A stretch of DNA of 64,000 bases from contig LRSL01000076.1 of NCBI GenBank assembly GCA_001563335.1, positions 1-64,000 of the forward strand, written 5' to 3'. Of this stretch, positions 2 to 4,080 are shown one piece after another (the first letter of the stretch is position 1; the number at the start of each line of letters is the position of its first letter). This DNA is from Candidatus Thorarchaeota archaeon SMTZ1-45 (GTDB lineage Archaea; Asgardarchaeota; Thorarchaeia; Thorarchaeales; Thorarchaeaceae). A program made the position numbers and the translations under genes. The notes beneath the pieces were generated by a model, which did not search any database, was not told where the DNA came from, and worked only from the letters and a program-made list of their open reading frames with translations.

Positions 2-1345
2 GAACGTAATGATAATATCAAACTGAATGTAACTAATGCAGAAATATCCGTACAAGGTGCAAGCAATGCCATATCTTGGACCTATACTGAACTTGCCCAA
101 GGCGGATATCAGATTGATTTTGAAACACGTCAAACAGGCAACTGGACAATTTTGATATCTGCATCCAAAGAGAACCATATCCCACTTGATATTCCATTCC
201 AACTCGAAATCACGCTAATTCCAATTAGAATTCAGCTCCTGACACCTAGATTTGCAATGGAAGGCAAACCTTTCAATATAACTGTACGAATCTTTGAGGT
301 TGGGACTAATAGAAGCATAAATGCAACTGTGACATATAGATTCTCTCAAACAGGAAGTGGTGTATTTCAAGAGATGGAGTATGCTGGAGATACTGGGTTG
401 TATACAATTACCATCCCTCTCCGACTCTTCTCCAGTCCTGTTTATAGACTTGAAATTAATGCAGTTCAGGAGAACTATAAACTCCTTCAACTCTTCGATG
501 AAGCTATCATTGTTGACATAGATATTTTGGGAAGAAATACGATGCTGATTTCCACATCAAGTGGAGTCGGAATATCTCTTGTCGTTTTCTTTATTGCATT
601 ACGAATCTATTCTGGAAGGAAAAAGAAACAGCTTAATGTTGATCTCGCGAACAAACGCCGCTTCGATGACGCTGACAATCTCATTGGTGTGATTGTTCTG
701 CACAAGAAGAGTGGCATTCCGATTTACTCAAAGATACCAAAGGGTGGATTCGATGAAGGAATCGTAGCCGCTTTCGTGTCAGCAGTCACTCACTTCAGAG
801 AGGAGTTTGAAATGTTCGATGAGGAACAGATGCAGGTCATCCCAATCTCTGACATCATTCGTGCAGTTCAGACCCGCAATCTCATCTGTGCCTTTATCAC
901 TGTGAAATCTGCCTCCCTAGATCAGAACCGGAGGATGGAGGCATATGGAATGCAGGTTGGTACATATCTTGATGACATCTTTGAAGATAGACCAAGTTCA
1001 ATCGTAGATAATAGGATCAATGAAATGCTTGACTACATCTTTGATACGACTTTGGATGGGCATCTTGTCAAATACTACAAGATCGCCATAACTGAAGTAT
1101 TTCCAAAGCGGTACCGATTCCTGGAAGAATTGATGACCGATGTGGCTACACGGCACTGTTCCAAACCAGTCTATCTGGCTCAAGGAGTGTCCACATATGG
1201 AATACCTCCGGCTAAAGGCTGTACATTGGTTCTTGAAGCGATTGATAAAGGTCTCATTGAAATATGCGAAGAACACGAAATACAAACAACAGAGAAGGAA
1301 TTCAAAGATTTCTTCAAAGGTTCAGCAGGCAAAGCGAAAACGTGA
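2..1345 (+). CDS. Large single-pass membrane protein, 5'-truncated: beta-rich extracellular repeats, TM helix, cytoplasmic longin-like domain
   Basis: Frame is open from base 2, so the gene starts before the window. TM segment GVGISLVVFFIALRIY is followed by RKKK, then LIGVIVLHKKSGIPIYSK...IVAAFVSAVTHFREEF, resembling Asgard longin-like domains. Confidence 0.7.
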   Translation, partial: ERNDNIKLNVTNAEISVQGASNAISWTYTELAQGGYQIDFETRQTGNWTILISASKENHIPLDIPFQLEITLIPIRIQLLTPRFAMEGKPFNITVRIFEVGTNRSINATVTYRFSQTGSGVFQEMEYAGDTGLYTITIPLRLFSSPVYRLEINAVQENYKLLQLFDEAIIVDIDILGRNTMLISTSSGVGISLVVFFIALRIYSGRKKKQLNVDLANKRRFDDADNLIGVIVLHKKSGIPIYSKIPKGGFDEGIVAAFVSAVTHFREEFEMFDEEQMQVIPISDIIRAVQTRNLICAFITVKSASLDQNRRMEAYGMQVGTYLDDIFEDRPSSIVDNRINEMLDYIFDTTLDGHLVKYYKIAITEVFPKRYRFLEELMTDVATRHCSKPVYLAQGVSTYGIPPAKGCTLVLEAIDKGLIEICEEHEIQTTEKEFKDFFKGSAGKAKT

Positions 1346-1415: not shown

Positions 1416-2108
1416 ATGATTCCGGGAATACTGAGCGACAAGAGAGCTGTGGTTGCTATTATAGTAGGTGTGATCCTATCTATTATCGCATATGTCTTTA
1501 TCCGACCTATAGACCGCACTATTTCATATGCTGTCTATGGGGTGGCATTGATCCTACTCGTTTATGCATGCATCATGGACATCTCTGATGAGTTTGAACC
1601 TGTTGCAGATACAAAGTCAATTGCCAAACCAAAACCCACTGTCAAAGATGTTCTGAAACCAATTGATGAACATGTTGAGGAGTATGTGCCAGCAGTCGAG
1701 GCTCCATCAGCAAAGCTCAGTAAACTTCCTATTGAAACCATTGAAGGCATTGGAGAAGTTTATGGGAAAGAACTTCGAGGTGCTGGTATGATCTCAGTTG
1801 CAGATCTTATGGTAGCAGATGCCGGAAAGGTTGCTGAGATATGTGATGTCAATATTGCGCAGGCTGAACGCTGGATTGCAATGAGTATGTTTGCTTGGTT
1901 GGATGAGGTTTCTGAGGAGGATGCTGAGGCAATCGTATTTGCTACAGGCATCACTGATCTCAAGAGTTTAGCTGCAGCCTCTGCAACGGATATTCATAGA
2001 AAGATCAAAACCGCGCTTGATGAGGGTGATGTACGAGTACCTGCTGGCTACAAGTTCAGTATTGAGAAGATACAGAAGTGGATTGATGCCGCAAAGAAAC
2101 TCATTTGA
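1416..2108 (+). CDS. DUF4332-like helix-hairpin-helix protein with two N-terminal TM helices
   Basis: Two hydrophobic N-terminal segments. IETIEGIGEVYGKELRGAG HhH motif; ends IQKWIDAAK. Confidence 0.7.
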   Translation: MIPGILSDKRAVVAIIVGVILSIIAYVFIRPIDRTISYAVYGVALILLVYACIMDISDEFEPVADTKSIAKPKPTVKDVLKPIDEHVEEYVPAVEAPSAKLSKLPIETIEGIGEVYGKELRGAGMISVADLMVADAGKVAEICDVNIAQAERWIAMSMFAWLDEVSEEDAEAIVFATGITDLKSLAAASATDIHRKIKTALDEGDVRVPAGYKFSIEKIQKWIDAAKKLI

Positions 2109-2128
2109 TATCTGATACTAATATCAAC

Positions 2129-2152
2129 CCAGTAAAAGATTGCTTTTACTGG
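2129..2152. terminator. 10-bp hairpin followed by a pyrimidine tract; terminator or 3' end of the opposite-strand RNA
   Basis: CCAGTAAAAG-ATTG-CTTTTACTGG, followed by a T/C-rich run at 2161-2195. Confidence 0.5.
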
Positions 2153-2374
2153 ACCCTCACTCTTTTCTTCACCCCCTGTCCCCTTTCCTTCTTTTGGAAC
2201 TAGAACTGTAGCGCGTTGTACAGTGTATTCTCCAGCCTTCTAGCTTTGTTCTATGACAGTATTGTTTGTGACATCCCTATGTATTACCTGTGGAATACCC
2301 AAGTATTCGCTACATAACGCTAAGGGTTATTAGGAAACACAGTGGAAATAGAGGTGAGTTGTACCACAATAAAT

Positions 2375-2780
2375 GAGCATGGAGATTAAGGCGATGACCA
2401 ATAATGAACGACGCACGTCAACCCTCCAAAAGAATGCGGAAGTCCTCCATACCCTATACGGACTTCTGGACAGTGACCGTGAACCAACCGATCAAGACGC
2501 AGAAAGCCTGCGTTATCTCTACGCGAGTTCCTAACTTTATCATGCTCCTCATTATCCAATGAGGTCAATTCGCTGTCTCCGTGCACCTCCCGGCATCAGA
2601 GACACAGTGGGGGCGGACTCCCCTAGGTCAGGCCCCCACACCATCTTAACGAGTTGATCAAGATGGCAACAACAGAGAACACAAAACTGGCCCGTTCAAA
2701 GGGCACATCCTCATTACTCCGAAAGCACCGACTACAAGCTGAAAGAACGCTTCGTCGGCGTCTCAAGAATCGGAAGTAGT
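2375..2780 (-). ncRNA. Candidate large structured non-coding RNA of unknown family; may extend to ~2130
   Basis: About ten consecutive helices, with G-U pairs favouring the minus strand. TATA-like box ~25 nt upstream of the first helix. No credible ORF. Confidence 0.65.
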
Positions 2781-2800
2781 TTTCGAAAATTTTCCTTTTT

Positions 2801-2815
2801 CATATATAGTTTATC
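2801..2815 (-). promoter_or_regulatory. BRE/TATA-like promoter for the candidate ncRNA
   Basis: Minus strand reads GATAAAC-TATATATG, which places the start at ~2779. Confidence 0.55.
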
Positions 2816-2820
2816 AAAAA

Positions 2821-2842
2821 TATTAGAACACGTGTTCTAATA
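2821..2842. promoter_or_regulatory. Perfect 22-bp palindrome (operator or terminator)
   Basis: TATTAGAACAC|GTGTTCTAATA. Confidence 0.5.
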
Positions 2843-2859
2843 ATATCCTTTGCTTGAAA

Positions 2860-3957
2860 TTAATCAAGTATCTGAAGTTCAAAATGTCCTCGAGATTGAA
2901 CAACTTGTTTGATAATTCTTAAAATTTCAAGGGTGATCCATTTGCTTGGTTTGCCTTTGTGTTCAATACTTCCATAAAGTCTTCCTGATAATGTCCTCTC
3001 GAGCACCCACTCTCCTGAAGCGAGCTGCTTGTTCATTATAACATCAAGAGCATCATCAATTCGGGAATCCTTTTCAAAACCAAGCTTTGTCACTACTGCT
3101 AAACCGCGGACAATGTCGTAGAAAAACTGTGGGAAGGTGAGCATTAACCACTGTTTATTGATGATCCTGAAATCGTGATGGTCAGACTTGTAGAGTCTAT
3201 GCATCAGAATGAATTCAACTCCACGTTTGATTGCCCTTCTTATGCCAATGCTACGGTGTTTCTTTGGTGTTTCTGAGAATGCATCAAGTGGAGTTATGGT
3301 GCCCATGAAACACCCGTGTTTATCATTCTTGTGAGCTCCCCAGTATGGACATAACCAGCCACCATCAATATTCTGGATCTCAACCAGCCAAGCCAACGCA
3401 TCATCTATTGCCCGGTGTTCGGAGTATCCCAACCGAATAAGTGCAAGTGCCACATTTCCTGTCAAACATGAAAGTTCTGACTCTCGAATTTTTGCTGGTG
3501 CCCATTCCTCAAAGCTAGGCGTGACTTTCCTTCTTGCTAGATTTCTTTTACGAACAAGCTCATACTCTTTCTTTGCTCCTCTCTCCATGAACTCCACAAA
3601 GCCTCCATCCTCATGTTGAAAGTCAAGCAGGTGTCCTACAGCTTCTCCGATTTGTGGGTTACTACGGTCCATCCCAAACATGCCCAGTAGCATGACCTGC
3701 CAAAATGAGGATTTGTACTTTGGCAGATAGGGTTCATCTTTTGATTCCCAAAAACCCTCTGGCTTCTGTTTGCTCAATATGTTTTGGGTCACTCTGTATC
3801 TTCCAAGATTTTGTCTTGCTTCAATCAACTCAGAATCATTACTCTTGTATTCAAGGAGGTCTCTCATCGTGAAAAACCTGACAGGCTGATTGTCCGCTTC
3901 TAAAAGCCAATCTATTGGAACGGACTTCAGTGCAGACATCCAATCGCTTGTCATCAT
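2860..3957 (-). CDS. Prenyltransferase/squalene-cyclase-repeat (alpha/alpha barrel) protein
   Basis: Repeated QW-like motifs QKPEGFW, QHEDGGF, QNIDGGW, QLASGEW. C-terminal KPSKWITL. Confidence 0.7.
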   Translation of the reverse strand: MMTSDWMSALKSVPIDWLLEADNQPVRFFTMRDLLEYKSNDSELIEARQNLGRYRVTQNILSKQKPEGFWESKDEPYLPKYKSSFWQVMLLGMFGMDRSNPQIGEAVGHLLDFQHEDGGFVEFMERGAKKEYELVRKRNLARRKVTPSFEEWAPAKIRESELSCLTGNVALALIRLGYSEHRAIDDALAWLVEIQNIDGGWLCPYWGAHKNDKHGCFMGTITPLDAFSETPKKHRSIGIRRAIKRGVEFILMHRLYKSDHHDFRIINKQWLMLTFPQFFYDIVRGLAVVTKLGFEKDSRIDDALDVIMNKQLASGEWVLERTLSGRLYGSIEHKGKPSKWITLEILRIIKQVVQSRGHFELQILD

Positions 3958-4080
3958 TTTCTCCCTATAATCAGAAGATAATCTCAATTTAAGCTAATGA
4001 AGTCACCGTAAGATGATTATCGGCAGTTTTATGGTCAGGCAATAAATAGAACATTCAATATTTCTTTGCAGGTGAAAGGA

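Follow-up and report, generated by a model that had tools for sequence, protein, structure and literature searches.

Structured RNA and short protein-coding frames can share one transcript, as in the dual-function RNAs SgrS/SgrT and RNAIII/hld, and genes for small proteins have been taken for noncoding RNAs (ncRNAs). Here, we analyze a hairpin-dense gap between two converging genes of Candidatus Thorarchaeota archaeon SMTZ1-45 (assembly GCA_001563335.1), which occupies positions 2109-2859 of the first 64,000 nucleotides (nt) of contig LRSL01000076.1; this whole stretch is called the window below. An initial annotation, made from the letters of the window, had read the gap as one large ncRNA of the minus strand. 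We consider it very likely that the gap instead holds a plus-strand microprotein cassette with a structured RNA, and likely that the account of the cassette given below is right as a whole. The cassette consists of a front end with a TATA-like box, a short open reading frame (ORF A), a module of three hairpins (H1-H3), a second short frame (ORF B) in some genera, and T runs. Like SgrS/SgrT and RNAIII/hld, it would be a hairpin-rich "intergenic" transcript with short conserved frames beside structured RNA. Unlike in these RNAs, the structured and the coding parts of the cassette do not overlap.

A bacterial arrangement of this type is the ccaF1-CcsR1-4 locus of Rhodobacter sphaeroides, which gives rise to the "cuckoo" RNAs and is one of the CIN1 loci of Alphaproteobacteria. 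It carries a gene for a small DUF1127 protein of 71 amino acids (aa; 47 aa in Sinorhizobium), and hairpin RNAs with a C-rich anti-Shine-Dalgarno (anti-SD) loop word lie directly behind this gene and are co-transcribed with it (PMC8034643). The four tandem small RNAs (sRNAs) have two hairpins each, every one with a CCUCCUCCC loop; they are cut out of the untranslated region (UTR) of the mRNA and act on their targets via the anti-SD loop (PMC8034643). The cassette shares with it a very small gene with hairpins directly behind, a C-rich anti-SD loop word and conservation within one taxonomic group. The cassette differs in being Asgard archaeal instead of bacterial and in having one module instead of four tandem sRNAs. 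Furthermore, the ORF A product is acidic and without DUF1127 or other Pfam match, only one of the three loops is C-rich (H2, UGCACCUCCCGGCA), and its word is CACCUCCC rather than CCUCCUCCC. The cassette also has no Rfam match even at E <= 10. Judged by DUF1127, the loops and Rfam, the cassette is not a member of the CcsR family.

The coding signal is most pronounced in ORF A (2394-2534, plus strand), whose predicted product is an acidic protein of 46 aa (MTNNERRTSTLQKNAEVLHTLYGLLDSDREPTDQDAESLRYLYASS) with GGAG 9 nt before the ATG. Every homologue keeps a plus-strand frame equal to 2394-2534, and the 59 distinct sequences have no insertion or deletion across the last 39 codons. Of these codons, 23 vary at position 1, 13 at position 2 and all 39 at position 3, with entropies of 0.37, 0.20 and 1.41 bits, respectively. 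Pairwise codon differences are synonymous rather than nonsynonymous by 32531:9108, a ratio of 3.6:1 in frame. Four of the other frames of the region give ratios of 0.03-0.07, and the fifth, an antisense frame, gives 1.10 with 157 stops. Protein identity to the window is 72-100% for ORF A and 29-82% for the neighboring proteins, and 23 of the 46 residues are invariant in 20 aligned sequences. ORF A is thus clearly under protein-level selection and is predicted to be a coding gene.

The ORF A family is small and restricted to the host and its kin. A word-indexed search returned 53 clusters of 46-83 aa from Thorarchaeota and relatives, the named ones being called "hypothetical protein," and an exhaustive profile search of 1.84 billion representatives gave 12 matches, eight of them below 1e-10, which comprise kin and three long repetitive proteins. 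No Pfam family was matched at E <= 10, the sole NCBIfam match, TrbJ, is at chance level (E 0.03), and there was no sequence match in the PDB. AlphaFold models the protein as a helix-loop-helix with helices at residues 10-26 and 33-44 (pLDDT 81.8). Foldseek with this model returned nothing significant from the PDB (best E 3.5), and the ESM Atlas holds unnamed clusters only. Stop-codon readthrough or a SECIS element behind ORF A was considered and dropped: the stop varies among TAA, TGA and TAG, and the frame through the hairpins differs among genomes. One database protein of 145 aa (P0054) runs from ORF A through the hairpins into ORF B in one frame, with the stop changed to W; it may be an error of gene calling or a true fusion that exists in one lineage.

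The second frame, ORF B (2663-2779, plus strand), encodes a predicted, very basic protein of 38 aa (MATTENTKLARSKGTSSLLRKHRLQAERTLRRRLKNRK), and an SD-like TGATCA stands 2 nt before its ATG. This word and the SD-like GGAG of ORF A are both suitably spaced from their start codons. A tblastn search from the window frame found 62 loci with 30 distinct versions in the host genus and a few others. These share the core T-K/R-L-x-x-S/T-x-G-x-x-x-L/I-L-R-K-H and a variable tail. Among 21 versions of equal length there is no stop, and the entropies at codon positions 1, 2 and 3 are 0.80, 0.58 and 1.45. The ratio of synonymous to nonsynonymous differences reaches 0.76 in frame. It is 0.05-0.09 in four of the other frames, while one antisense frame has 0.46 along with nine stops. 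The coding signal is therefore of the same kind as that of ORF A and weaker, and ORF B is likewise a predicted gene. No source annotates it as a gene, Pfam and NCBIfam contain no match, and a search with a mechanically called frame of 41 aa at ORF B gave no candidate. A suspected likeness to the ribosomal proteins L37e and L34e was not supported by Pfam. A predicted complex of the ORF A and ORF B proteins scored 0.02.

In the window, the start codon of ORF B is covered by a further hairpin, H4 (CCATCTT/AAGATGG, 2641-2666, plus strand), which folds with z -3.0. H4 is found in the closer relatives of the window only and is not general, since the start codon has at least two bases paired in the minimum-energy fold in 16 of 30 distinct sequences. 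Immediately 3' of the ORF B stop lie three T runs (T4, T4 and T5; 2780-2800, plus strand), likely the archaeal termination signal of the plus-strand unit. A run of at least four T within 40 nt past the ORF B stop is present in 19 of 28 loci.

The two coding signals bear directly on the initial annotation, which had proposed a single RNA of 400-650 nt, started on the minus strand near 2779 with its promoter at 2815-2801; on this view, the gap would contain no protein gene. Much of what it described is indeed there. The gap between converging genes is real, and each helix that was checked lies at about the position given for it: four helices within 2425-2513, in which every pair is standard on the minus strand of the window sequence, three in 2547-2639, and the hairpin at 2641-2666. 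The impression that the gap is almost continuously base-paired corresponds to no more than chance, because the minus-strand fold of a 662-nt stretch has z -1.28 and was equalled by two of 20 dinucleotide shuffles; on the plus strand, z is -3.66. When the parts were folded separately (300 shuffles each), the only outlier was 2545-2642 (z -4.28 on the plus strand and -2.91 on the minus strand). On the minus strand, the supposed 170-nt domain reaches z -1.03, the supposed 5' domain -1.71, and 2166-2345 -0.61; the stretch 2201-2326 gives +0.15 on the plus strand.

The comparison among homologues also speaks against the large RNA. Its central 120 nt and the stretch 2663-2779 evolve as plus-strand codons. 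What had been taken for the 170-nt domain is the antisense of ORF A, and its helices are paired in 54-79% of alignment cells across the 59 homologues, against 93% for the real hairpins. The 5' domain and the U-rich linker, thought to be an Sm site, are the antisense of ORF B; the linker (about 2668-2688, minus strand) is opposite codons 2-9. A good TATA-like word does stand at 2801-2815 on the minus strand and would suit the proposed start, but this stretch has an identity of 0.30, that is, only 30% conservation, among 30 homologues. Moreover, 2166-2345 has no consensus structure on either strand according to RNAalifold. Taken together, a single minus-strand RNA is extremely unlikely.

The family assignment of the initial annotation fared better. 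None of the Rfam 15 covariance models reached its gathering score anywhere in the window, and over 1900-3000 at E <= 10 the best match had E 1.3 (17.6 bits against a cut-off of 120 bits), with none plausible and no C/D-box or other sRNA family near threshold. These scans also gave no support to the K-turns that the annotation had suggested. The absence of an Rfam match, as the annotation had supposed, would make the large RNA a new one. The locus is also neither RNase P RNA nor SRP RNA, as both map to other contigs of the source genome (G000): RNase P RNA to C11:6966-7304 (168.5 bits) and SRP RNA to C24:47149-47457 (85.5 bits, E 1.6e-19, below the curated cut-off).

Two further readings of the ORF A stretch were examined. 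A minus-strand frame at 2386-2586 was rejected as a gene because relatives lose the frame after about 15 codons. In the helix UCCAGAAG/CUUUUGGA inside ORF A (2425-2470), 78-79% of cells are paired whichever strand is read, compared with 30-55% in slid controls, and 3-4 of 8 pairs have double changes. This may reflect a weak structure of the mRNA or may simply follow from coding conservation.

The kernel of the structural claim holds in the stretch directly behind ORF A. The helices CCUCAUU/AAUGAGG, UGUCUC../..GAGACA and GUGGGGGC/GCCCCCAC are conserved and covarying RNA helices, and they form a module of about 95 nt (2547-2639, plus strand) whose first hairpin begins 13 nt past the ORF A stop. 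H1 (CCTCATT/AATGAGG, 2547-2564) has 7 base pairs (bp), is paired in 95.9% of cells and has both-side changes in two of seven pairs. H2 (2574-2604) has the stem TGTCTC/GAGACA, which covaries in several lineages, and the loop TGCACCTCCCGGCA at 2582-2595. H3 (2607-2639), rich in G and C, pairs GTGGGGGC with GCCCCCAC and has ACACC on its 3' side; 94.7% of its cells are paired, and five of its eight pairs have both-side changes. Its upper part is variable, and several lineages do without it.

For the module as a whole, a covariance model was built from 57 sequences, and its 66 matches, 62 of them distinct, were realigned. Standard pairs fill 93.4% of the cells in the distinct sequences, and sliding the partners lowers this to 38-62%. 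Both-side changes occur in nine of 21 pairs, amounting to 39 cells against 8.1 +- 2.6 in shuffles, and none of 500 shuffles matched the covariation score; an alignment fitted to a model leans toward structure, and the same helices and double changes are present in plain MAFFT alignments and in the raw sequences. The plus-strand fold (z -4.28) was equalled by none of 300 shuffles. The loops of H1 and H3 are variable. That of H2, UGCACCUCCCGGCA, is invariant or almost invariant: allowing up to two mismatches, 51 of 59 loci have its word about 50 nt past ORF A, and in seven of the remaining eight the word differs by a single-base deletion. In 30 homologues, identity is 0.92-0.96 in this loop and the H1 stem, compared with about 0.8 in ORF A. 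By these comparative data, H1-H3 is a conserved structured RNA element of an undescribed family.

The conserved block is confined to one lineage. When 61 related genomes were searched with blastn, 32 of the 36 from the host family had the region, and other families had only short matches to a palindrome discussed below. In 30 homologues aligned with MAFFT, the conserved block begins abruptly at about 2170, and conservation peaks at 2170-2199, 2350-2364 (0.92) and 2545-2620 (0.85-0.96). A scan with the ORF A profile, one genome per species, gave 59 loci, all in metagenome-assembled genomes (MAGs) titled Thorarchaeota, Promethearchaeota or uncultured archaeon. The covariance model R1 matched 24 of 26 sampled genomes of the host family with one copy per genome, save one genome with copies on two contigs (G020) and one with a second, weak match (G014, E 1.6e-4). 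Outside the family, 124 genomes of the phylum yielded a single weak match (E 0.004), and the source genome has one match and one weak match (E 0.004).

On which strand is the module transcribed? Several lines of evidence indicate that this is probably the plus strand. The module adjoins ORF A and lies within the ORF A/ORF B unit. The initial annotation had noted that several imperfect pairs are G-U on the minus strand only. This is true of some pairs in the window, two in UCCGUAU/GUAUGGA and one each in UGAUCG/CGGUCA, UCCAGAAG/CUUUUGGA and UGUCUCUG/CGGAGACA, but the homologues show that in H1 and H3 pairs that are G-U only on the plus strand are the commoner kind. Read on the plus strand, G-U exceeds A-C by 16:3 cells in H3 and 5:2 in H1, or by 14:5 in total and 10:3 in H3 alone when counted as combinations of pair and cluster. 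The RNAalifold consensus is -19.8 kcal/mol on the plus strand and -16.0 kcal/mol on the minus strand, and the T runs shift to after ORF B where ORF B exists.

Other observations weigh against the plus strand, and they invite a different view of the module: the small genes would be real, and H1-H3 would be a short antisense RNA of the minus strand with an SD-like GGGAGGUG loop and GNRA loops, which might bind ribosomes or the cassette mRNA. The seventh pair of H2 is always C-A or A-C on the plus strand and a U-G or G-U wobble on the minus strand only, and the pair beside it covaries (G-C, C-G and A-U). H1 loops are of the GNRA type in 14 of 61 sequences on the minus strand and in 1 of 61 on the plus strand, and the center of the H2 loop could be closed as GCC-GGGA-GGU on the minus strand. 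The minus-strand fold also beats shuffles (z -2.91, with 3 of 300 as good), and the free energies of the single sequences do not separate the strands (lower on the plus strand in 30 and on the minus strand in 32). A minus-strand RNA, however, would have A-C mismatches in the middle of H3, and the plus-only G-U pairs outnumber the minus-only ones in H3 and H1, as counted above. Furthermore, the alignments contain no conserved promoter-like word to the right of H3, and the unit is trailed by T runs, not A runs. We therefore consider the antisense RNA improbable.

Contigs from RNA libraries of relatives cover 2327-2385 and 2381-2643 and extend into ORF B; these contigs are strandless and might derive from DNA. 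The word shares in the RNA runs were 0.05-0.06, from contigs of relatives only. The contigs give no cover over 2100-2326 or 2667-2900, both of which are less conserved. A number of contigs stop near 2593-2603, for which the end of the conserved stretch is the simplest explanation.

If the module is transcribed on the plus strand, it would be part of the 3' UTR of the ORF A mRNA or, where ORF B is present, of the spacer between the two cistrons. In species without ORF B, H3 and the T runs may mark or protect the 3' end. H1-H3 might then be a mere 3'-end device of the ORF A mRNA, a terminator or stabilizer with the loop as a recognition site for a protein or an RNase. This would fit the start of the module 13 nt past the stop, the dispensable upper part of H3, and the loci without ORF B, in which a run of at least four T follows the G/C-rich H3 within 40 nt in 14 of 29 cases. 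The same run follows H3 in only 2 of 28 loci with ORF B, where the module is internal. Termination in archaea requires T runs rather than hairpins, and the identity of the loop and the H1 stem exceeds that of ORF A beyond what a generic stabilizer would need. Hence, we rate a role confined to the 3' end as unlikely. A role confined to ORF B fails as well: ORF B and the hairpin at its start codon are absent from about half of the distinct loci, so such a role cannot explain the conservation of the module.

What might the invariant loop do? Seven nucleotides of the H2 loop, CACCTCC (2584-2590), are identical to the 3' tail of 16S rRNA; the 16S rRNA gene was not found in the source assembly, and the tail used is that of a same-genus genome (GGATCACCTCCT). 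By analogy with CcsR, the loop may act as an anti-SD word, either in cis or as part of a processed sRNA. In cis, it would pair with the SD sequences of the cassette's own ORFs; in trans, the module would be excised as a stable sRNA, similar to the CcsR RNAs. The idea rests on a 7-nt identity within an invariant loop, so that covariation is uninformative here, which weighs against it. We regard the anti-SD function as possible, with chances below even. A search of the literature, with supplements outside its scope, found no paper joining Thorarchaeota with anti-Shine-Dalgarno, and among the matches listed on Asgard sRNAs or microproteins nothing was relevant.

The front end of the cassette (2171-2366) has neither a conserved reading frame nor a conserved RNA structure. 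Short frames around its boxes were rejected as coding because they differ between genomes. A TATA-like box stands at 2327-2334 (plus strand), with the sequence TTATTAGG in the window and TTTATATG, CTTTTATG and similar in relatives, and forms a conserved T/A-rich octamer column in the alignment. The spacing between TATA box and transcription start is known for archaea, and from its usual value we infer a plus-strand start near 2355-2360.

Two conserved boxes bracket this promoter. Box 1 (2171-2200), at the left edge of the conserved block, is a C-rich word ending in TTGGAAC with an identity of 0.77-0.79 in 30 homologues; of the 54 distinct loci with sufficient DNA upstream, 47 have it. Box 2 (2338-2366), between the TATA box and ORF A, consists of the word CAGTGGAAAT, a G-rich word and the invariant GTTGTACCA. 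Its identity is 0.92 over 2350-2364 in 30 homologues, it is single-copy in the genome, and it is present in 53 of the 54 loci with the consensus CAGTGGAA-G/A-TAGAGGTG-AGTTGTACCA (also given as ..CAgtgGAAgTAGAGGTgaGTTGTACCA); a stricter CCA-NN-GGAA-type pattern fits 18 of these 53. GAGGTG at 2351-2356 was considered as an orphan SD word, a reading replaced by that of the G-rich part of the box. The boxes are inverted relative to each other and are separated, to the left of the TATA box, by a spacer (2201-2326) of moderately conserved sequence in which RNAalifold predicts no pairs on the plus strand and about 0 kcal/mol on the minus strand.

Both boxes resemble archaeal origin recognition boxes (ORB), to which Orc1/Cdc6 binds; Box 2 is closest to a mini-ORB. 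PMC1904270 names TTCC and GAA as the conserved ORB core and gives the 13-bp mini-ORB word TTCCAGTGGAACT. Compared with this description, a word of the TCCAGTGGAA type precedes the G-rich word of Box 2 in relatives, its counterpart in the window being CAGTGGAAAT, and Box 1 reads on the minus strand as a TTCC..GGAA dyad followed by G runs; the mutual inversion of the boxes is a further likeness. Unlike in the ORB arrangement described there, the spacer is not A/T-rich, the dyad of Box 1 is more widely spaced, and orc1/cdc6 is not adjacent. The boxes also overlie the promoter of a small gene. Judged from these sequences, the likeness to ORB is a resemblance only, and any protein that binds the boxes would more likely act in transcription.

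The source genome contains another region with such motifs. An intergenic stretch of 860 bp on contig C69 (112380-113260; L127:4381-5261) looks like a replication origin, with two inverted ORB-like boxes around an A/T-rich stretch, four to five copies of the palindrome AGAACA(C/T)GTGTTCT and a frame of 95 aa of no known family. Its neighbors are saccharopine-dehydrogenase-like and pyruvate/indolepyruvate-oxidoreductase-like genes, and orc1/cdc6 genes lie 24 and 63 kb off on the same contig. The Box 1 pattern TTCC-N-GGAAA-G-run has only three matches in the source genome, one of which is a cleaner ORB-like site on C69, and the Box 2 core AGTGGAAAT is common to the ORB-like box on C69.

With this region in mind, the whole block might be a DNA element, a secondary origin or initiator-bound control region whose hairpins are inverted repeats of DNA. 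It would have inverted ORB-like boxes (2171-2200 and 2338-2366) and an origin-associated 18-bp palindrome (TTAGAACACGTGTTCTAA, 2823-2840), and the same types of motif surround the A/T-rich stretch on C69 in a textbook-like layout. Four observations stand against it in addition to the spacer, whose GC content is 0.38-0.48: the front end and the C69 region share no significant similarity beyond the palindrome, no orc1/cdc6 gene is nearby, the G-U intermediates in H3 and H1 point to selection on RNA pairing rather than DNA, and ORF A is under protein-level selection. A DNA element is thus very unlikely as an account of the block.

Within the plus-strand cassette, the ORB-like boxes around the promoter suggest control by a DNA-binding protein of the Orc1/Cdc6 type. 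The composition of the spacer weighs against this part of the reading as well, as do the position of the orc1/cdc6 genes, none of which is near the cassette (C69:49.7 kb and 88.6 kb), and the core shared with the C69 box, which is only 9 nt long (E 2.4). Such control is conceivable on the evidence of the boxes, though rather doubtful. The most far-reaching version would combine all parts: the module would be freed as an sRNA that titrates SD sequences, an Orc1/Cdc6-type initiator would switch the cassette, translation would thereby be tied to the replication cycle, and the microproteins would act as partners. We see this combination as a long shot.

The palindrome at 2823-2840 lies between the converging units and is kept in most same-genus homologues. 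At up to three mismatches it has 20 matches in the source genome. About 13 lie between genes, and some form clusters on C69 and C115; this recurrence points to a putative binding site of some DNA-binding protein. Copies elsewhere in the genome include C20:2143, C89:48311 and C115:5688-6058, and relatives have many short matches.

The genes around the cassette are a DUF4332/HHH gene on the left (1416-2108, plus strand) and a squalene-cyclase-like gene on the right (2860-3987, minus strand). A perfect 10-bp hairpin at 2129-2152 (plus strand), 21 nt past the DUF4332/HHH stop, is probably the 3' end of that gene and outside the cassette; DNA to the left of 2170 could not be aligned in the 30 homologues. 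Further upstream, the gene at 2-1345 (plus strand) encodes more than 447 aa with one predicted membrane span and is truncated by the contig end. It has no Pfam family, and other genera, too, have it next to the cassette (29-32% identity). Many MAG contigs stop 0-3 kb from the cassette (L002, L003, L019, L024, L032, L033 and others), and that of the window itself begins 2.1 kb upstream. Such breaks could be due to repeated boxes, to strain variation or to an origin-like region.

In summary, a hairpin-dense "intergenic" stretch of an Asgard genome very likely resolves into a compact cassette of two microprotein genes, unannotated or called "hypothetical," and a structured RNA, not a giant ncRNA. 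Few sequences of the locus are as constrained as ORF A, which is nonetheless limited to one family, and the H2 loop is invariant over the same range. Lineage-specific, single-copy and ultra-conserved elements of this type are promising places to look for core regulatory parts overlooked by standard annotation. If the anti-SD reading is true, the cassette would be an archaeal instance of a bacterial mechanism. If the module titrated SD sequences as a free sRNA, it would be an archaeal counterpart of the "cuckoo" RNAs, and with a switch by Orc1/Cdc6 as well, translation control in Thorarchaeota would be coupled to the replication cycle.

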